A stretch of DNA of 64,000 bases. Source: Verrucomicrobiota bacterium (lineage in GTDB: Bacteria; Verrucomicrobiota; Verrucomicrobiia; Limisphaerales; UBA11358). Within the stretch, counting starts at the first letter, position 1; each line of letters opens with the position of its first letter. Shown in pieces: positions 4,922-18,266 of this stretch. The position numbers and the translations under genes are program-made. The notes under the pieces are model-generated. The model worked only from the letters and a program-made list of their open reading frames with translations, was not told the DNA's origin and searched no databases. The DNA is taken from positions 323 to 64,322 of the forward strand of contig JBEKOG010000028.1 in the NCBI GenBank assembly GCA_049522015.1, written 5' to 3'.

Positions 4922-6055
4922 ATGCCCAAGCGCGATTATTACGAAGTGCTCGGCGTCAGTCGCAACGCCGGCGATGAAGAAATCAAAAAGGCTTATCGCC
5001 GGCTGGCCGTCAAATTTCATCCGGACAAAAATTCGGGCGACAAAACCGCCGAGGAAAAATTCAAGGAAATCGGCGAGGCCTACGAGGCGTTGAGTGATCC
5101 GCAAAGGCGCGCCGCCTACGATCAATACGGCCACGCGGCATTCGATCCGCGGGCGCGGGCCGGCCGCGGATTCGGCGGCGCCGGCGGCTTTCATGATCCG
5201 TTCGAAATCTTCCGCGAAGTTTTCGGCAGCGGAAGCATCTTCGAAAGTTTTTTTGGCGGCGGCCGGGACCCGTCGCAACCGCAGCGTGGCGGCGACCTGC
5301 GTTATGATTTGGAAATCACACTGGAAGAGGCTGCGCTCGGCTGCGAGAAGGAAATTTCCGTGTCGAAACTCGACCGTTGTGATGCGTGCAATGGCTCCGG
5401 CATGGAGCACGGCTCAAAAATCCGGACGTGCTCAACCTGCGGCGGACGCGGGCAGGTGCTCACGTCCCGCGGCATCTTTAGCATCGCGCAAACATGCCCG
5501 CATTGCAAAGGCGCGGGACGCATTTTGGAAAAACCGTGCAAATCCTGCCACGGCGAGGGAAAGCGCGAACACGGTTCCAAAATCAAACTCCGCATTCCGC
5601 CGGGTGTGGACGCGGGTGCGCGCCTGCGTTCCCCCGGCAACGGCGAAGCCGGCTTTCGCGGCGGGCCGCCGGGCGATCTTTACGTCGTGTTGCATGTCAA
5701 GGCGCATGAAATATTCCAGCGCGACGGCGACGACCTGCTATGCGAAGTGCCGGTCAGTTTTGTTCAGGCGACTCTCGGCGCGGAAATTGAAGTGCCCACG
5801 CTCGATGGCCGGGCCACCATTAAGATTCCTGTCGGCACGCAACCGGGTACGACCTTTCGTATCAAAGGCAAAGGCGTGAAAAATCTGCAGGGCTATGGCC
5901 ACGGCGATTTGCACGTCCGCGTTCAGGTCGAAGTTCCGACGCGCTTGAACCACGAACAAGAAGCCAAATTGCAGGAATTCGCTGAATTGTGCGGCGAAGA
6001 CGCCAACCCCATCAGCAAAAGTTTTTTTGAAAAAGCAAAAAAATTGTTCCAATGA
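4922..6055 (+). CDS. dnaJ: Molecular chaperone DnaJ
   Basis: J domain (DYYEVLGV...HPDKN), G/F-rich linker, and four CxxCxGxG zinc-finger motifs ([32 protein letters not shown]). Confidence 0.97.
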
Positions 6056-10657: not shown

Positions 10658-11131
10658 ATGAACGGCTCATTCGATTTCGTCAGTACTGAGGACAAACCGG
10701 CCTTGATCGCCTTTTCCACGCCCGAATGGCTGGAGACCGCGAAGACCGCGTTGCAGGAGCTTGGCTACAAAGTCCACACCGCCGCCACGCACAGCGATTT
10801 TCTCGTGCGCTTCGGCCAGGCGCATTATCAAGTTGTCGTCGTCGAGGAACTTTTTGGCGCGAACACCATTGACGAAAATCTCACGCTCAAGGCGCTGCAA
10901 ACCATGCCCGTCAACCAGCGCCGTCATGCCACGATCATTTTGTTCGGCGGCTCGTTCCAAACCTTCACGCCCATGGAAGCCTTCAAGTACAGCGTTCATG
11001 CCGTCATCAACAGTTCGGAAATGTTTTTGCTCAAGCAACTGGTTGAAAAGGCCGTGGCCGACAACGAACTGTTCCTGCACAGCTTTCGCGAAGTCCAAAC
11101 CCGCGTCTTTACCAGCGGCAATCGCTTGTAA
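10658..11131 (+). CDS. Hypothetical protein with a degenerate receiver-like (CheY-fold) pattern
   Basis: Alternating beta/alpha pattern (ALIAFS, YQVVVVEELF, TIILFGG, VHAVINS). The usual phospho-acceptor Asp position appears to be Glu. Starts 2 nt after the second ATPase gene. Confidence 0.55.
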   Translation: MNGSFDFVSTEDKPALIAFSTPEWLETAKTALQELGYKVHTAATHSDFLVRFGQAHYQVVVVEELFGANTIDENLTLKALQTMPVNQRRHATIILFGGSFQTFTPMEAFKYSVHAVINSSEMFLLKQLVEKAVADNELFLHSFREVQTRVFTSGNRL

Positions 11132-11270
11132 TGCTCCGTATTGACTCACGGATAAAGGTTGCCCGGAGCTGGAGCCAGTGACGGTTAACTTTTCTGAAAT
11201 TTTCTTTGTCTTACACGAAATGAAGGTTTAAAGTCGCTCCTGAATTTAGGAGAAACCGGGCTAAAATCTT

Positions 11271-14200
11271 ATGAAAAAGACGCAGGCGGTTTCAGCGGGG
11301 ATTGCGTTTGTTCTCGCAGTTGGTTTCATTTTACACGCCCAAACAACGACCATATCCATTCAATCATTACGGTCGGCGTCAGCCGGTGATTTGGGGGTGA
11401 TGTTGCAGGCGATGGAAGCCACGACCCCGTTGTCGGCGGAATCAGTTCCACAGGGCGCCACGTTCTGGTCCGCCCAAAATATCAATTTTTCTCCGCTACC
11501 ATCAAACATCAATAATCTGCCGGCATGGAATTTAGGTGGTGGTAACTGGCTTCTGGCGGACCAGGATTTCGACTATGCTGCCTTGGAACAGCAAAATACG
11601 ACCATGCACCTGCTGTCCAAGGCGGCGGACTTGGAAGTGGAAGGCGATGAAGAGGCCAGTTCCAGCAGTTATACGATTGACACTAATGGGCTGTATCTGG
11701 AGGTCGCGGGTGTCAGCAACGGTTCGGCTTGGTTCAATCTGCACAACGCCAGCAATCAGGTTTATGCCATCTGGAGCACGACCAATCTGCTGGCAAACTG
11801 GAATGTGGAAACGGAAATGTGGCCGACGAATCCGGCGATGCTGCCCTTCACGGTGCCGACGCTGGAGCGGCAGAATCTGTTTGTGCGGGCGGAGGACTGG
11901 ACGGACGTTGACAGCAATGGTGATGGCATCCCCGATTGGTGGATATGGATGTATTTCGGGACGCTGGATTTATCGGCCACCAATCTGGACAGTCAGGGCA
12001 ACACGCTCCTGCATGATTACCAGAATGGGCTTGACCCGAACATCATTCAATTTTCGTTGCAGTTCACGAACAATTATTTCAACACGAGCATGGCAAACGG
12101 CGCGATTACCCTTTTAGGCGGCGTGCCTTCTTATATTGCCGTACTGGTCAATGACCCGAATCTGGCCAACGCGAACTGGCAGTCTTACAGTTCAAATGTC
12201 GTTGTCTCGTTGAACGCCGGCGATGGCGCTTATGAAGTTTGGGTTGGTTTGAAAGGGCTGCCGCAGGATGCCTACCAAACATGGCACGGATTTCACCTGA
12301 TACTGGACACGGTGCCGCCAACCATCATTATCACCAATCCTGCTGCCGGGGTTGTTTCCCAGCCGATGATTCAAGTGCAGGGTTATGCCAATGAAGCATT
12401 AAGCAGCCTGACCTTCGATGTCAGCAACGCCGCGGGCCTTTGGACGAACCAAACCGGTTACATCACCAGCCGCTATTACGACCTCAACCTGCTGGAGTTC
12501 ACCACCAACTGGTTTCAGTGCTATGACATTGTTCTGACCAACGGATTAAACACCGTCACACTCCACACCACCGACTTGGCGGGCAATGTGACCAAGACCA
12601 ACGTCAACTTCACGCTGGATTATTCCAGCGACACAACGCCGCCAGTTTTGACGATGATCTGGCCGCAGGATGGGACGGCTATTGGCGGGAGCAGTTTCAC
12701 CTTGCAGGCGCAAGTGGATGACAATACAGCCACCGTCACGGCCCAGATCGTGGATGCCAACGGCGACACGAACATGGTTCAAGGCTTGGTGGAACGGAGC
12801 GGGCTGGTTTGGATTCAAAATCTGCCACTGGCAACCGGCACGAATACGCTGACCGTCACCGCCACGGATGCGGCGGGCAACACGTCCGTGACCAACCTCG
12901 CTTTGGTTCAAAGCACTGTGACCGTCAGCATGAACCTGCTTTCCAGTGACCAGCAAAATCAATGGCCCGTAACGGTGACTGGAATGGTGAGTGATCCGAG
13001 TTGCGCCGTCACGGTCAACGGCGTGCCGGCGCAAGTCAACTCCGATGGCACATGGGAGGCGGATGATGTGCTGGTGAGTCCCACTGGTGTGGCAAGTTTT
13101 GACGTGGAGGTTTATTCGGGCAACGCTTCCAGCCTGGCTGCTTCCCGAAAGTCAAATTCGTTGGTTCATGCCAACGATGCGGGAACTGATAATTCCATTG
13201 CCTCACAAATGCTGAACCAATTGCAACAGGCCACGGTGGTTGCGTCGGATTACAGCGGGGTTGGATATTACGTATGGACGACTAATGCGAATGACATGGG
13301 GCAGTCCAACGGTTATTTTCAGGATGAGACCTTGATTTGGGATTACGTGTCGGGCGGGACTTGGAACTATTCGGATAGTTTTGGTCCTGCGTCAGGGGTC
13401 ATGCCTTCGGTTGAAGATGGGATTCATAGCTATGGCTGGTTGTTCAGTCCAACCTTCGAATACGCCGCTTTGGATGACGCCAACTATCGGCGGATCGTTC
13501 AGACCAAAGTCATGATTGCTCGGCAAGGCATGGTGCCATTGGCAACGACGCAGACAACGCAGACATATCTTGTCTGCGCCTGCGCGGCGGGCTTTTCCCA
13601 GCCGATCCTGCCTGGCAGCAGGGAGGATTTTGTCAATCAAGATTATTTCTTTAACTTCATTAACGTAGGCATTTGGAATCAGCAATGGTATGCCGGTGAT
13701 GTGCCGTTGCCGCCGGAATGGTTCCAAATCAATGGCCAGACTTTGGTCAACACCGGCCAAACCAATGCCGACGGTTCGGTTTGGGGAATGACGTCGGTGC
13801 AAGGTCCGGCCGGTGCGGCTGTGGATGTGACACCCACCCTCATTTCCAGTATTTCATCGACGGGCATGGATTACACCTTTCTGGTGAAAGCGAGTAAACT
13901 TTATCCGCCGGCGGTGGACGCCAATCGAGATGGCAACATCACCTTTGATACTGCTGGCCAAGCAAACCCCGACCAGACCAGCGCCGCCAAGCCGTATCGG
14001 TTCTGGGTCAACAATGACCATGATGGTTATGACGGTTCCATTGACGATTACGACGATTTGGACCCGTCCAGGCAAACGGATGCGCAAAGTTTCTCAATTA
14101 CCTGCACCAGGGATTTGGAGGATTACACGCGGCTTTGGATCAATACGCAGGGACTCACCGAAGACTTGCAAAATGGCAATCTGCTGCTGGCGCTGGAATG

Positions 14201-15542
14201 GAAGAGCGCGCTGGAATGGAAGAGCGCGCTGGACGACCCGCAAATGCAATTATTTCAAGCAGCGGAAACCGATGGCGGTTCGCTTTACCTGACTGACGCG
14301 AATGCAGCCGCGCAACAGGTGGCTTCACCTTACGGGACGCGCATCATTGAGTGGCGGCACTTGAATACGCTGACCAAATACAATCCGTTCATTTTCCCGG
14401 CGAGTTTTTGGTCGAACATCTCCACCAACCAGCCGGTGGCGTATCTGCTGTTCGATGCCGTGAGCCGGGGCAGCGGGAAGCTGGTGGTTTCGATTTACAA
14501 GAACGACGGGGAAACCAAACTTGCGGAAAGCCAGCCACTTTATTTGAAATTGCAGGACGTAAAGGAAATGTATGAACGCTGGACGGTGGATAACAATGGT
14601 GCCGTAGCCACAACAGCCAGTCTTGCGCCGGGATATTCCTACGACTCGACGATTAAAGCGGAGAATAACTACATTCTGTTTGTGCATGGCTGGAATCTGG
14701 CACCGTGGGAGCGCGATGCGTTTGCGGAAACCGCATTCAAGCACCTCTACTGGCAGGGCTACAAAGGGCACTTCGGCGCGTTCCAATGGCCGACAGAATA
14801 TGGATTCTCAGGAATCATCAGTGTCATTACCGATGCGCACAACTACGACAACAGCGAGTCCAACGCGTGGGCGTCTGCAGCGGGACTGCTTGGCAAATTG
14901 AACGATTTGAACGCCGCATTTCCCAATCACATCTATCTAATGGCCCACAGCATGGGCAACGTGGTTGCCGGTGAAGCATTAAAGCAGGCAGGTACAAACC
15001 TTCCAATAGTGAATACTTACGTCGCGATGCAAGCAGCAGTGCCGGCGCATTGTTACGACCCAGCAACTCCCAATCGTGTGGCCCCTATTTTACCGAATTG
15101 TTACGCGAATTATTGGACGAACGGCGCGCCCGGTTATTTCAACGGCACAGCAGGGGCGAGAAATTACATCAATTTTTACAACCAGCAGGATTGGGCATTG
15201 GGCTGGTGGAACACCGACCAAAATTATAAGCCGGATACTGGTTATGGATATGACGAGCCGACAGACACGTTTCTGCGCGGAACACTTTGGTTAAGGCCGC
15301 TTTATTTCCCGACCAACAGGTATGAAATTTTTGCCTATGCTGATCCCGCGCCATGTTTCGCGCTCGGGGCGCAGGCAAATGTGGACGGAGCGTTTCAAGG
15401 TCAACAGATAGATTTACATGCAATATTCAGCTTCGGCGACCAGCACAAAGATCATAGTGGCGAATTTAATTCGGATAACATGAATAGATGGTCTTTCTGG
15501 CAACAATTTCTCTTATCAACAAAACTGACAGGACCCAAATGA
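11271..15542 (+). CDS. Giant secreted multidomain protein: signal peptide, Ig-like repeats, acidic D-rich module, C-terminal alpha/beta-hydrolase (lipase/esterase-like, DUF900-like)
   Basis: Signal peptide MKKTQAVSAGIAFVLAVGFILHAQ. Repeated DTVPPTI/DTTPPVL Ig-like domain starts. DSNGDGIPDWW and DANRDGNITFD...NNDHDGYDGSIDDYDDLD acidic motifs. Hydrolase core FVHGWN...YLMAHSMGNVVAGE (GxSxG) with later D (NQQDWAL) and H (HKDHSGEF) candidates. Confidence 0.85.
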   Translation: MKKTQAVSAGIAFVLAVGFILHAQTTTISIQSLRSASAGDLGVMLQAMEATTPLSAESVPQGATFWSAQNINFSPLPSNINNLPAWNLGGGNWLLADQDFDYAALEQQNTTMHLLSKAADLEVEGDEEASSSSYTIDTNGLYLEVAGVSNGSAWFNLHNASNQVYAIWSTTNLLANWNVETEMWPTNPAMLPFTVPTLERQNLFVRAEDWTDVDSNGDGIPDWWIWMYFGTLDLSATNLDSQGNTLLHDYQNGLDPNIIQFSLQFTNNYFNTSMANGAITLLGGVPSYIAVLVNDPNLANANWQSYSSNVVVSLNAGDGAYEVWVGLKGLPQDAYQTWHGFHLILDTVPPTIIITNPAAGVVSQPMIQVQGYANEALSSLTFDVSNAAGLWTNQTGYITSRYYDLNLLEFTTNWFQCYDIVLTNGLNTVTLHTTDLAGNVTKTNVNFTLDYSSDTTPPVLTMIWPQDGTAIGGSSFTLQAQVDDNTATVTAQIVDANGDTNMVQGLVERSGLVWIQNLPLATGTNTLTVTATDAAGNTSVTNLALVQSTVTVSMNLLSSDQQNQWPVTVTGMVSDPSCAVTVNGVPAQVNSDGTWEADDVLVSPTGVASFDVEVYSGNASSLAASRKSNSLVHANDAGTDNSIASQMLNQLQQATVVASDYSGVGYYVWTTNANDMGQSNGYFQDETLIWDYVSGGTWNYSDSFGPASGVMPSVEDGIHSYGWLFSPTFEYAALDDANYRRIVQTKVMIARQGMVPLATTQTTQTYLVCACAAGFSQPILPGSREDFVNQDYFFNFINVGIWNQQWYAGDVPLPPEWFQINGQTLVNTGQTNADGSVWGMTSVQGPAGAAVDVTPTLISSISSTGMDYTFLVKASKLYPPAVDANRDGNITFDTAGQANPDQTSAAKPYRFWVNNDHDGYDGSIDDYDDLDPSRQTDAQSFSITCTRDLEDYTRLWINTQGLTEDLQNGNLLLALEWKSALEWKSALDDPQMQLFQAAETDGGSLYLTDANAAAQQVASPYGTRIIEWRHLNTLTKYNPFIFPASFWSNISTNQPVAYLLFDAVSRGSGKLVVSIYKNDGETKLAESQPLYLKLQDVKEMYERWTVDNNGAVATTASLAPGYSYDSTIKAENNYILFVHGWNLAPWERDAFAETAFKHLYWQGYKGHFGAFQWPTEYGFSGIISVITDAHNYDNSESNAWASAAGLLGKLNDLNAAFPNHIYLMAHSMGNVVAGEALKQAGTNLPIVNTYVAMQAAVPAHCYDPATPNRVAPILPNCYANYWTNGAPGYFNGTAGARNYINFYNQQDWALGWWNTDQNYKPDTGYGYDEPTDTFLRGTLWLRPLYFPTNRYEIFAYADPAPCFALGAQANVDGAFQGQQIDLHAIFSFGDQHKDHSGEFNSDNMNRWSFWQQFLLSTKLTGPK
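14190..14233 (+). repeat. Perfect 18-bp tandem duplication (2.4 units) inside the giant gene
   Basis: gcgctggaatggaagagc at 14190-14207 is repeated at 14208-14225, then partially to 14233. This gives LALEWKSALEWKSALDD. Confidence 0.95.
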
Positions 15543-16594
15543 AAAAGAATTTGGTTTGGCTAATTTTATTATTCATGGTGGTAGTAATTGTGGTGCTTGT
15601 GTTCTACAAATCCAGCAAGCTCCCTCTCCCCGCATCAGAAGCAAGATTGCCTTTTCAAGAAAAACCTGTTTCGACAAATTACTCGTTACCAAACCAGCAG
15701 ACACAACCCCGGCCATTTACGTCTAATCAAGTAGTCCAACAAGCCAATCAGACTGCGGCTTCAAGAACTGAATTTCTTAAACGTGAATTGGAATCAAAAA
15801 ATGTTCCCGTTAGTTTTTATGGCCGGGTGGTAGATCAAGAAGGGAATGGGATAGCTGGCGTCAAAATTTTAATGCACGTTCGGCAGTGGCATCTTGATAC
15901 CACGGTAGACCGTTGGGGAAACAAATTCCCGAAATTTGAACGTGTCACTGATTTAAGCGGGAACTTTTCCCTTGAGGATACGACCGGGGATAGTTTGAGT
16001 ATAGAATCAGTATCTAAAGAAGGCTATCGTCTTTCACCAAAAGCCCCGAATATATTTGGCTACGGTTCTGGGAATGTGCCCGCCCCATTTCATCCCGACC
16101 CACAAAATCCGGTCATCATTCAGATGTGGAAACTCGGTGAACCGGCGAATTTGATTTCTCACAGGACTCTCTTTGGCTTTGAACCAGACGGTCGCATTTA
16201 TACGCTCGATTTGATAGCCGACCAGAAGATTGCGAGCGGGAATGTCAACGGCGACTTGCGCGTCCAATTTCAACGTCAATCTATACTCAAGCCAAAGGAA
16301 AAATATCCTTGGGCATTAGAAATTTCTGCCGTTGATGGCGGGCTAGCGGAAACAACTGATGAATTTGAATACGTTGCGCCGGAAAACGGCTATCAGCCGA
16401 AAATTTCGTTTCAAACGAATTCCATTTCCCCCAAAGCCATGCCTGACATAACAAGAGACTACTATTTCACTTCAAGGAACGGCCAGGTTTATGGCGTGGT
16501 ATCCATGCAATTTTTTTCGGACTATAATGGTCAAAGCGCGATCCTTGTTAATTCTCGTGTAAATCCAAATGGCTCACGAAATTTACAACCTTGA
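15539..16594 (+). CDS. N-terminally membrane-anchored protein with a carboxypeptidase-regulatory-like beta-sandwich segment; translationally coupled to the hydrolase gene
   Basis: ATG at 15539 overlaps the upstream TGA (ATGA). MKKNLVWLILLFMVVVIVVLVFY is a TM anchor. FYGRVVDQEGNGIAGVKILMHV resembles CarboxypepD_reg-type domains. Visibly A/T-richer codon usage. Confidence 0.75.
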   Translation: MKKNLVWLILLFMVVVIVVLVFYKSSKLPLPASEARLPFQEKPVSTNYSLPNQQTQPRPFTSNQVVQQANQTAASRTEFLKRELESKNVPVSFYGRVVDQEGNGIAGVKILMHVRQWHLDTTVDRWGNKFPKFERVTDLSGNFSLEDTTGDSLSIESVSKEGYRLSPKAPNIFGYGSGNVPAPFHPDPQNPVIIQMWKLGEPANLISHRTLFGFEPDGRIYTLDLIADQKIASGNVNGDLRVQFQRQSILKPKEKYPWALEISAVDGGLAETTDEFEYVAPENGYQPKISFQTNSISPKAMPDITRDYYFTSRNGQVYGVVSMQFFSDYNGQSAILVNSRVNPNGSRNLQP

Positions 16595-16889
16595 ACCAAC
16601 CGGCTTGTTTTCACACGGAACCCTTATTTTAACGCTGCTCTATTTTTCGACCAACACGTACGAGATTTTTGCCTATGCTGATCCCGCGCCATGTTTCGCG
16701 CTCGGCGCACAGGCGAATGTGGGCGGAGCGTTTTTAAAAGCTGGAGTTTCTCAACAAACCGATTTGCATGCCGCGTTCGGATTCGGCAACCAGCACAAAG
16801 ACCACAGCGGTGAATTCAACTCTGACAACATGAGTCGCTGGCAATTTTGGGATTCGCTATTATTCACGGATTTCGGATTTACGAGATAA
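16569..16889 (+). pseudogene. Orphan duplicate of the C-terminal ~95 aa of the 11271..15542 hydrolase (includes the candidate catalytic His region)
   Basis: Homology to 15252-15542 begins about 16590, just at the stop of the preceding gene. A 41-nt block is identical (15327-15367 = 16665-16705). The peptide YEIFAYADPAPCFALGAQANV...HKDHSGEFNSDNM is shared and the last ~12 aa diverge. Confidence 0.75.
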
Positions 16890-16894
16890 ACACA

Positions 16895-17068
16895 ATGAAA
16901 ACAAAATTCTGGATATTAATTTCGGTTTTGGCATTAGCGATAATAGCAGCCGCGCTTTGGCGGCGACCCAGACACACGATTGTTCCAACACCGTCACAAA
17001 CAACAATCCGATTCAGCAATGCGTCTGATAATGTCTCACACGTGAAAGGGTCAGTCCTAGAAAAATGA
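16895..17068 (+). CDS. Small single-pass membrane protein (57 aa) following the orphan fragment
   Basis: MKTKFWILISVLALAIIAAALWRRP is a TM anchor. It sits in the same position relative to the orphan C-terminus as 15539..16594 does relative to the full gene. The ATG lies 5 nt after the orphan stop. Confidence 0.5.
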   Translation: MKTKFWILISVLALAIIAAALWRRPRHTIVPTPSQTTIRFSNASDNVSHVKGSVLEK

Positions 17069-17522
17069 CAAAATGTGGCAACCAATAGCAGGGCAAATGC
17101 CACCTATTTAAAAACGGTACCGAAGCAGCTTCACGTTACCTCACGGCCTGCAACTATAAGGGCAGGACAGCTTTCACTTATCATTCCGAACGCTTCAACA
17201 CACGGGCCACCCACATCCAGCGCTGTCCCGGCCAACCACAAGGCAGCTTCGACGAGCATCGCTCAAAGCAACTCTGCGAAACACAGGCTCGCCCATACCG
17301 AAATGCGATGGATGCAGGTTAGACCACGATTCGCGACAGCGAAGAATTCAATTTGGGGCACCCATCTTGTGGCGGGCTTGGGAAGCCAAACGCGACCGCA
17401 TCCGGCTCTGTGGATTTTAGGATTGGCAGGCTTTGAATTTTCTGTCAATCAATCCGCCGTCGCCTTGCTTTGCCGGATTGCCGGCCAATGCGTGTACAAA
17501 GAGAGATTGAATTCATTTCGAC

Positions 17523-18266
17523 ATGACTCGCCTCGACCAGGCACTGGTTGAACGCGGCCTTTGCGAAAGCCGCGAACGCGCCAAACGCGCCATTCTTGCC
17601 GGCCAGGTCCGCATCAATGCCCAGTCCGCGCACAAGCCCAGTGACTCCGTCAAACCCGATGACCGGCTCACTCTGGATGCGGAAGAGAAATTCGTCAGCC
17701 GCGGCGGCCACAAACTGGAACACGCCCTGCGCCATTTTCAACTGGATGTCGCCGGACTCGTGGCGCTCGACCTGGGCGCGTCCACCGGCGGATTCACCGA
17801 TTGTTTGTTGCAACACGGCGCGGCGAAAGTTTTTGCCGTGGACGTTGGCCGGGGGCAATTCGCCTGGAAGCTCCGGCACGACCCCCGCGTCGTCGTCATG
17901 GAGAAGACCAACGCGCGCCATCTGACCGCGGCGCAATTCCCACCGCCATTCACCCCGGCCGATCTGGCCGTGATTGACTGCTCGTTTATTTCGTTGCGAA
18001 ATATTCTGCCCGCCGCCATTGCATTATTGCGGCCCAATGGCAAAATTGTCGCGCTCATCAAACCGCAGTTTGAAGCCGGCAAAGCCGAAGCCGACAAGGG
18101 TCGCGGCGTCATCAGCGACCCGTCGGTGCATGAGCGCGTGCTCAATGAGCTGCGGGAATTCGTCCGCGCGCAACCCGGGTTGCGCTGGCAGGGCGTGGTG
18201 GAATCACCGTTGCTCGGACCGGCGGGCAACAAGGAATTTTTGGCGCTGATTGAAAAAACAAGCTGA
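17523..18266 (+). CDS. tlyA: TlyA-family rRNA (cytidine-2'-O)-methyltransferase
   Basis: S4-like N-terminus (RLDQALVERGL..SRERAKRAI), FVSRGGHKL, and the SAM motif LDLGASTGGFTDCLLQHGA. Confidence 0.92.
   Translation: MTRLDQALVERGLCESRERAKRAILAGQVRINAQSAHKPSDSVKPDDRLTLDAEEKFVSRGGHKLEHALRHFQLDVAGLVALDLGASTGGFTDCLLQHGAAKVFAVDVGRGQFAWKLRHDPRVVVMEKTNARHLTAAQFPPPFTPADLAVIDCSFISLRNILPAAIALLRPNGKIVALIKPQFEAGKAEADKGRGVISDPSVHERVLNELREFVRAQPGLRWQGVVESPLLGPAGNKEFLALIEKTS

Follow-up and report, generated by a model that had tools for sequence, protein, structure and literature searches.

A stretch of 64,000 nucleotides from a Verrucomicrobiota bacterium (Limisphaerales, UBA11358; assembly GCA_049522015.1, contig JBEKOG010000028.1, positions 323 to 64,322 of the forward strand; hereafter the window) carries the gene for a large exported alpha/beta-hydrolase, a tightly linked gene for a membrane-anchored partner protein (hereafter p2) and, immediately downstream, a truncated second copy of the hydrolase 3' end (hereafter the orphan) followed by a short open reading frame (ORF). 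The reading favoured here, with a rough probability of 0.55, is that the locus encodes a Sec-exported lipase-type toxin and a periplasmic immunity protein, that 3' cassettes of such loci undergo displacement and that the orphan in the window is a fossil. Arrays of orphans are otherwise familiar mainly from contact-dependent inhibition (CDI), rearrangement hotspot (Rhs) and colicin loci. The original prediction, made from the letters of the window, described a polymorphic-toxin-like locus; this description holds for the family, in which pairing, co-variation and displaced units are found, and is corrected in its details for the window, where the orphan is degraded. The system as such is of a known kind; the toxin and partner families that make it up are new, and the phylum has received little study.

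According to the proposed mechanism, the hydrolase would be an antibacterial toxin attacking membrane lipids and p2 its cognate immunity protein, neutralising it on the periplasmic side by way of two beta-sandwiches that would face the periplasm. Across the family, an incoming 3' hydrolase part with its p2 pushes the older 3' hydrolase end and p2 downstream; the displaced units stay as 5'-truncated orphans flush with the preceding p2 stop and then shrink through internal in-frame deletions. In the window, the one complete module of this two-gene family, taken to be specific to Verrucomicrobiota, is the resident one of type A, and the orphan (16593-16886), together with a 57-aa ORF, is the leftover of a type B module, which may still be able to exchange sequence with the resident gene across an identical tract of 41 nt.

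The hydrolase and its partner protein

The hydrolase gene (11271..15542, on the plus strand like all segments of the window written below with two dots unless stated otherwise) encodes a 1423-aa exported multi-domain protein with a Sec-type signal peptide (approximately 11271..11342; MKKTQAVSAGIAFVLAVGFILHAQ, as read from the translation), immunoglobulin (Ig)-like domains in mid-protein (Pfam Big_13 and Glucodextran_B), a family-specific pre-domain and a C-terminal DUF900-type alpha/beta-hydrolase domain. A family profile hidden Markov model was built from 33 long family members and the window sequence and used to scan six-frame translations; the conserved family core, comprising the pre-domain and the hydrolase domain, lies at 13914..15530 (profile positions 5-558). 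The original prediction had noted a signal-peptide protein of this length ending in a GxSxG hydrolase domain, which Pfam assigns to DUF900 (PF05990) over residues 1130-1241 (27.4 bits for a cut-off of 20.5, E=2.8e-6, profile positions 17-116 of 232); many of the homologues carry precomputed PF05990 annotations.

In the 39-sequence alignment A2, the putative nucleophile Ser1227 (14949..14951, in the GxSxG motif AHSMGN) and Asp1307 (in NxxDWAL) are invariant, and His1392 and His1395 (HxxHS) are at least 90% conserved. The candidate catalytic His segment HKDHSGEF (15444-15467) falls within the resident type A cassette part, residues 1329-1423 (15255..15539; tail RWSFWQQFLLSTKLTGPK), which is the region duplicated in the orphan. 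The AlphaFold2 (AF2) model of the hydrolase (predicted local distance difference test score, pLDDT, of 87) has alpha/beta-hydrolase topology, and Ser1227 comes after a strand, as a nucleophile elbow should. The nearest folds in the PDB are lpg2422, the pancreatic lipase family, Aspergillus fumigatus lipase B and PlaB, all of them weak matches (E~3e-4, TM-score ~0.3), and PDB sequence searches with the hydrolase profile and the pre-domain gave nothing useful. On motifs and model, the domain qualifies as a lipase-like DUF900 alpha/beta-hydrolase with a Ser-Asp-His triad and predicted catalysis.

Two side observations concern the gene itself. A perfect 18-nt tandem duplication at 14190-14225 (GCGCTGGAATGGAAGAGC twice) gives ALEWKS-ALEWKS in the pre-domain. 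The hydrolase leader and first codons (11227-11300) are 81% identical to positions 5805-5878 of another locus, L066 (other loci are cited by such numbers); the hydrolase domains of the two share only about 41% identity, and the stretch may represent either a regulatory leader that has been conserved or a 5' end acquired by recombination.

The partner gene of the window (p2A, 15539..16594) encodes 351 aa and starts within the stop of the hydrolase gene through the ATGA overlap at 15539-15542, as the original prediction had it. In the AF2 model of this candidate immunity protein (pLDDT 87), the chain begins with a transmembrane (TM) helix as its anchor and continues through a disordered linker and a single helix into two domains with a beta-sandwich fold. 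p2A is identical to the database protein P0121, which is present on at least 91 contigs. A PDB sequence search with p2 gave nothing useful, and the PDB fold search returned weak generic beta-sandwich matches only (teneurin, pilins, dioxygenase-like), without any functional lead. The hydrolase and p2 carry export and anchor signals that are consistent with an encounter in the periplasm. The C-terminal end of p2, NPxGSRxLxP followed by the stop (window 16565-16591; alignment A3), is among the most conserved p2 stretches in all types, which is unusual for the tail of a protein.

The hydrolase domain has 316 detectable homologues, and the number of genomic loci is at least 198. The label Verrucomicrobiota (Limisphaerales, Pedosphaera, subdivision 3) is attached to the majority of the records, and two or three loci occur in several metagenome-assembled genomes (MAGs). 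In short members (550-580 aa), a clear signal peptide leads directly into a pre-domain of about 230 aa, which opens with FWVNNDxDR, and the hydrolase completes the protein. In the Verrucomicrobiota loci fetched, 79 complete hydrolase copies are followed by a p2 homologue that starts within 330 nt downstream, which supports an obligate pair of hydrolase and downstream partner (n=79). p2 is the most divergent component, with a mean pairwise identity of 33% versus 52% for the N-terminal part of the hydrolase. Two module types are of importance for the window. Type A has the hydrolase tail ending in RWSFWQQFLLSTKLTGPK and the partner p2A, and is represented by the resident module, L093, L091 and L002; type B has the tail GAFLKAGVSQQ...RWQFWDxLLFTDFGFTR and a partner p2B beginning MKTKFWI..., and is intact in L094 and L095.

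Co-variation and displacement of the 3' units

Over the 79 pairs, p2 identity correlates best with that of the C-terminal 98 aa of the hydrolase (r=0.68), followed by the rest of the catalytic domain (0.48) and the pre-domain (0.35). A discordant set of 29 pairs, with N-terminal parts at least 70% identical and p2 at most 45% identical, locates the change: identity of the catalytic N-terminal part is mostly 0.7-0.9 (with dips to about 0.6) up to profile position ~450, falls past that point to 0.47 and 0.32, returns to 0.82 in a conserved core and ends at 0.45 in the tail. The drop begins at about 451-461, and profile position 461 corresponds to window residue 1329, the left edge of the orphan. 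The loci L031 and L042, which belong to one MAG, are 82% identical in the N-terminal part of the hydrolase and 25% identical in p2. The exchanged C-terminal part is always one and the same fold segment, with a mean identity of 37%, and not a choice of alternative toxin domains.

A displacement can be read from the syntenic loci L012 and L014, which share 96-98% nucleotide identity. L014 has an additional 2.27 kb, comprising a different middle and catalytic part of the hydrolase together with its p2, and the catalytic part and p2 of L012 recur in L014 as a 5'-truncated unit (100% identical in the C-terminal hydrolase part and 99% in p2) that begins with GTGA on the stop of the new p2. In the model developed for CDI and Rhs loci, orphan modules arise by displacement and fragmented orphans constitute a fossil record (PMC4927057); the arrangement of L012 and L014 matches the displacement picture proposed there for cdiA-CT/cdiI orphans.

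Recombination within the hydrolase gene is suggested by L095, whose hydrolase is A-like upstream of codon 1329 (84% nucleotide identity to the window versus 58% to the pure type B locus L094) and B-like downstream. As placed by informative sites, the change from one type to the other falls between 15309 and 15385, an interval that encloses the 41-nt core (permutation p=0.012). Taken together, these comparisons show that p2 co-varies with the last ~100 hydrolase residues, a stretch comprising the catalytic-His segment and the terminal helix, and that 3' units are displaced whole. The swapped unit envisaged in the original prediction, a C-terminal part of the hydrolase with its downstream partner, is supported by both lines of evidence, and the comparison of relatives that it proposed brought out p2 partners, extra orphans and alternative tails across the loci of the family.

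The orphan module of the window

The orphan is a 106-aa open frame (16569..16889) holding a 5'-truncated type B hydrolase fragment from 16593 onwards (profile positions 461-553), flush with the stop of p2A. The frame can be read without interruption from an ATG at 16569, inside the 3' end of the 351-aa gene, whose stop occupies 16592-16594. Positions 16593-16868 match hydrolase residues 1329-1416 with 65/92 identities (71%; BLASTP E=2e-41), and the two copies agree in 206 of 282 aligned nucleotide columns (~73%); the duplication of the last ~95 codons at the gene end, judged by eye to be roughly three-quarters identical, was thus correctly recognised from the letters. The same is true of the candidate catalytic His segment, HKDHSGEF being present in both copies, and of the 41-nt block 15327..15367, which recurs exactly at 16665..16705. 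An identical run of this length among 206/282 matches has a permutation P of ~5e-5, and the block has synonymous-site differences in other family members; it is likely to be a gene-conversion or crossover tract.

Downstream of the orphan, the 57-aa ORF (16895-17068) resembles the very beginning of some 30 p2-family proteins in alignments that start at its residue 1 (rarely 2 or 6), its best BLASTP match being P0142 (57% over 49 aa, E=4e-12), with P0148 also matched. The p2 profile covers positions 1-69 only on 16895-17098, the ORF ending at 17068 and profile homology fading at about 17098. Given these matches, what the orphan and the small ORF preserve is the stretch where hydrolase and p2 meet in a second module, and 16895..17098 is a type B partner gene of which only the 5' end is left. 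The small TM protein that had been described as the orphan's own does exist as an ORF; it corresponds, however, to the N-terminal ~50 residues of a p2-family gene. By its alignments, the second module has lost the 5' part of the hydrolase and nearly all of the partner gene, p2B being cut after ~57-69 codons.

The orphan is closer to other loci than to its neighbour: its amino acid identity is 86% to the resident C-terminus of L095 and 79% to that of L094, against 71% to the resident copy beside it, and the linked stub matches p2B and not p2A, with 57% identity to the N-terminus of p2B. The idea that the orphan was recently copied in place from the resident C-terminus is rejected, since it belongs to type B. 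The dN/dS between the orphan and the intact copy of L095 is 0.055, with dS saturated, which indicates that purifying selection acted on the fragment over the greater part of its existence.

These data bear on a reading as neutral debris, in which a rapidly duplicating and decaying exoenzyme family would have left the orphan and the stub as a one-off remnant of a tandem duplicate with no part in cassette switching, and the mosaics would be ordinary recombination between paralogues. The truncated partner of the orphan speaks for it, as do the insertion sequence (IS) that interrupts the orphan in L085, the progressive decay in L093 and L095, stop codons included, the full tandem hydrolase-p2 pairs in L037 and L049 and the lack of any recombinant in the metagenome search described below. 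Random decay, however, does not predict that truncated copies always abut a p2 stop, usually with an intact p2; the orphan is moreover of a distinct type, nearer to L095 and L094 than to the resident copy, with a stub unlike the resident p2, its frame is open with a dN/dS of 0.055 against the intact type B copy, and the identity breakpoint coincides with its edge. Debris as the whole explanation is therefore considered unlikely. For the window itself, the truncated partner, the tolerated IS and the absence of a recombinant junction in assembled metagenomes lead to the view that the orphan is a fossil. Since the 57-aa ORF is the stub of a partner gene that would encode about 350 aa, the module is, to judge from its sequence, degraded and type B, with no deployable cassette, and the proposal that the window stores a usable alternative module is given up.

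Orphans in other loci and the flush junction

Orphans were sought by a profile scan of all loci, a first tblastn search with the window domain having found none in L004-L080. Orphan 3' cassettes, a hallmark of polymorphic toxin loci (sensu Zhang et al. 2012), are present in the window, L014, L032, L093, L095, L104, L107 and L108. The orphan of L014 spans hydrolase profile positions 175-555 and is followed by an intact p2, that of L032 retains the last 29 hydrolase residues and is likewise followed by an intact p2, and those of L104 and L107 span 346-559 with two p2 genes following. L108 has two successive orphans with one intact p2 between the fragments, the contig ending in the second. The orphan of L093 (269-415) has no following p2, and that of L095 (460-535) contains two stop codons, the contig ending there. 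The orphan of L093 carries a type-B-specific insertion in common with L094 and has the same p2 stop junction as the window with a different segment kept; the best reading is that both orphans descend from a single 5'-truncated B module, which different deletions have reduced. Remnants of the p2 3' end, of a different type, also lie 3' of p2 in L091 and L092 (flush with the stop) and in L011 (after ~45 nt).

The truncated hydrolase copies start at most 3 nt, or a few shared codons, from the preceding p2 stop (window 16592-16600; L014 4931; L093 10057; L032 12096; L104 5217; L108 343 and 1606), whichever of seven different truncation points they have. Several copies have their first codons in common, VKE[MY] being found in L104, L107 and L108 and NLEP in both the window and L093, and continue from there at different places in the hydrolase, which indicates in-frame internal deletions; microhomology between the p2 3' end and the hydrolase is found at the truncation points. 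It is plausible that selection maintains the flush junctions because translational coupling would otherwise be interrupted before it reaches the next p2. As a separate observation, the hydrolase gene is split with a 4-nt overlap at profile position ~175 in two independent contigs (L002 5574-5625 and L003 1607-1658), yielding an N-terminal ORF of 943 aa (541 aa in L003) and a catalytic ORF of 372 aa; the split point is also the start of the L014 orphan.

The persistence of p2 behind such fragments is of relevance to a second rival explanation, namely that the hydrolase is a secreted or surface-bound nutritional esterase or lipase which p2, anchored in the membrane and reaching into the periplasm, serves as a foldase or chaperone, as an adaptor for secretion or as an anchor, a pair comparable to LipA and its lipase-specific foldase Lif, the co-variation then reflecting a folding interface. 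Lif, too, is a downstream, translationally linked, N-terminally anchored periplasmic partner specific to one lipase, and the gene order, coupling and anchor of the present pair resemble those of lipase-foldase operons. The strict pairing in 79 cases, the N-terminal Ig-like domains typical of surface enzymes and the failure to find a delivery domain in the hydrolase also fit this explanation. p2, however, is all-beta and not of the helical 'headphone' Lif fold; it has no Pfam match to Lipase_chap (PF03280), no foldase is found among its PDB fold matches, and its identity as a Lif-type foldase was rejected on fold. Intact p2 genes follow hydrolase fragments down to 29 residues (L032), where a foldase without its enzyme would have no reason to persist, and the rate at which p2 evolves exceeds that of the enzyme it would assist. 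Copies of p2 are retained and grow in number even where the enzyme gene is incomplete, extra tandem p2 genes, 28-71% identical to their neighbours, having accumulated in about 17 loci. In its divergence, its extra copies and its survival behind truncated hydrolase fragments, p2 behaves as an immunity gene would. A helper role for p2 is on this evidence improbable, and the toxin-immunity reading is retained.

The accessory island and its insertion site

The accessory island that holds the module (11133..17521, no strand assigned) is flanked by a conserved gene for a 157-aa protein, whose stop is at 11131, and by a tlyA-like methyltransferase gene that starts at 17523. In five sister contigs (L097, L099, L100, L102 and L103) the gap between these two genes is 36 nt, homology to the window ending at 11132-11134 and restarting at 17522, and in L099 and L100 the flanks are 91-94% identical to the window at the nucleotide level. 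As the site is empty in these contigs, positions 11133-17521 are an insertion, and the module is an accessory island of ~6.4 kb absent from 91-94% identical sister lineages, which agrees with the original prediction of such an island. Its A/T-richness had been ascribed to the whole locus; it applies to the distal 2 kb (~15-17 kb, G+C 0.456) and not to the hydrolase gene, which has 0.52-0.54, the flanks having 0.55-0.60.

The gap between the two genes (window 11132/17522) is a variable hot spot among the sister lineages, and the same site is occupied by other inserts in two of them: L096 (10475-11426) has 0.95 kb of inserted sequence, in which lies a helical ORF of 91 aa, and L098 (10474-16700) has an unrelated multi-gene island. 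The non-coding remainder of the window island (17099..17521, no strand assigned) has no match to the hydrolase or p2 profiles; 17363-17521 is common to the sister locus L096, and a similarity search with 17099-17362 found no match to anything. About 67 nt upstream of tlyA (17322-17388) recur with 83% identity at an unrelated position of L096 (6191-6255), and may be a small dispersed repeat. Rfam, promoter and terminator scans over 10.5-18 kb gave nothing exceeding chance. No synteny of flanking genes was found among 80 GTDB and other loci, the modules lying in unrelated contexts.

Ten independently assembled contigs of the window species (JGI and ENA samples) share the arrangement with 99-100% identity over 13 kb. 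This disposes of nearly all the credit that could be given to an assembly artefact, in which alleles of two strains would have been mis-joined to give the duplicate: the source is metagenome-derived and repeats are prone to mis-joining, but the two copies are only ~73% identical in nucleotides and the arrangement recurs in all ten contigs, so that an artefact is extremely improbable. Gene calls of 1312 and 1423 aa were rejected as real variants, being caller artefacts on identical DNA. In one sample of the same species (L085, 7290-8396), an IS of ~1.1 kb with a DDE_3 transposase and a helix-turn-helix (HTH) gene lies within the orphan ORF (window ~16823-16825), which it cuts to 92 aa; its flanks are otherwise 100% identical.

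Weight of the toxin-immunity reading

Several observations weigh against a toxin and its immunity protein. No trafficking or delivery domain (type V, VI or VII secretion systems, RHS, PAAR or VENN) was found in the 1423-aa protein with Pfam and NCBIfam or in permissive searches (E<=10) of the N-terminal part and the pre-domain, its delivery-related features being limited to the signal peptide and the Ig-like domains. Similarity of p2 to known immunity proteins or solved structures was not detected. The variable unit is part of a single catalytic fold and not a toxin domain that could be separated, with no sharp demarcation motif, and co-variation of tail and partner would also be expected of any tightly interacting pair or from physical linkage. 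The arrangement is fixed and invariant in the window species, no alternative C-termini or arrangements being present in the ten contigs, and one population (L085) tolerates an IS within the orphan. The mosaic of L095 is known from one 1.9-kb metagenome contig, and an A-to-B recombinant junction over the 41-nt core had 0 matches in 241 million metagenome records, a count that does not address rare variants. The conserved block, which the original prediction had taken for the recombination site, is bracketed by the switch in L095 and is without a junction in assembled metagenomes. The toxin and immunity roles are suggested by genetics and by precedents.

A more far-reaching possibility, put forward tentatively and at somewhat less than even odds, is that these loci represent phylum-specific (Limisphaerales/Pedosphaerales) Sec-exported lipase-type bacteriocins not described so far. 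Their specificity cassette would be no separate toxin domain but the last third of the catalytic fold, with the catalytic His and the terminal helix, together with a novel membrane-anchored two-beta-sandwich immunity protein, and displaced cassettes would be kept as arrays in which truncated hydrolase ORFs bridge the translational coupling between immunity genes. Such a bridge would explain why orphans start flush with the preceding stop.

Comparison with known systems

The resemblance to CDI and Rhs loci lies in a full-length exported toxin gene with a tightly linked partner, in 5'-truncated toxin 3' ends that have their own partners downstream and a shared stretch permitting recombination with the main gene, and in displacement between near-identical loci, here L012 and L014. 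In contrast to these systems, the window locus is without a two-partner secretion (TPS)/CdiB component, haemagglutinin repeats, VENN, RHS repeats or PAAR, and has export by signal peptide only; Pfam gave no matches to a TPS domain, filamentous haemagglutinin (FHA) repeats or VENN-type demarcation. What is exchanged here is the final third of a single alpha/beta-hydrolase fold, the catalytic His included, and not a separable domain of varied fold, and the orphans of the present family begin flush with the preceding partner stop.

Type VI lipase effectors with their immunity proteins (Tle/Tli) are a precedent for lipase effector and immunity pairs. Alpha/beta-hydrolase toxin domains (Tox-ABhydrolase-1/2/3) also occur in polymorphic toxins (PMC3482391). 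Tle1-5/Tli and Tox-ABhydrolase systems share with the present family a GxSxG lipase-like alpha/beta-hydrolase, an adjacent partner predicted to be exposed to the periplasm and duplicated partner genes. They differ in that the domain here is DUF900 and not DUF2235, DUF3274, PGAP1 or Lipase_3, that a Sec signal peptide is present and that the island lacks vgrG, hcp and PAAR, none of which was found within it; Pfam found no Tle-family domain (DUF2235, DUF3274, PGAP1-like, Lipase_3, PLD) in the hydrolase, and p2 is unlike the solved Tli structures in the PDB fold search.

Among the E-type nuclease colicins, ColE9-J carries a 3' remnant of the colicin E5 gene together with the E5 immunity gene. As in the present family, diversity is concentrated in the catalytic-domain 3' end of the toxin gene and in the immunity gene, and a truncated toxin end with a second immunity gene lies downstream; colicins, however, are plasmid-borne, SOS-induced nucleases released through a lysis gene and have small cytoplasmic immunity proteins. 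A closer parallel in enzyme class is cinquedea, a secreted Haloferax phospholipase that is bactericidal by experiment and most of whose archaeal homologues carry DUF900 (bioRxiv 10.64898/2026.06.10.730825). It is a secreted alpha/beta-hydrolase like the present one, the link being through the DUF900 annotation of its archaeal homologues, and differs in being archaeal and a single-gene transcription unit for which no partner gene is reported.

Implications

Verrucomicrobiota are abundant in soil, peat and freshwater, and to our knowledge their interbacterial toxin systems are almost unexplored. If the toxin-immunity reading is true, the loci would represent a new toxin family of DUF900-type hydrolases and a new immunity family without a Pfam model, occurring in at least 198 genomic loci, and cassette displacement and orphan arrays would operate inside a single catalytic fold. 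The analysis predicts a map of partner specificity, in which profile positions ~451-480 and 541-558 (window residues ~1320-1350 and ~1405-1423) would be the determining segments, and the rule of the flush junction would offer a handle on how silent immunity genes remain expressed.

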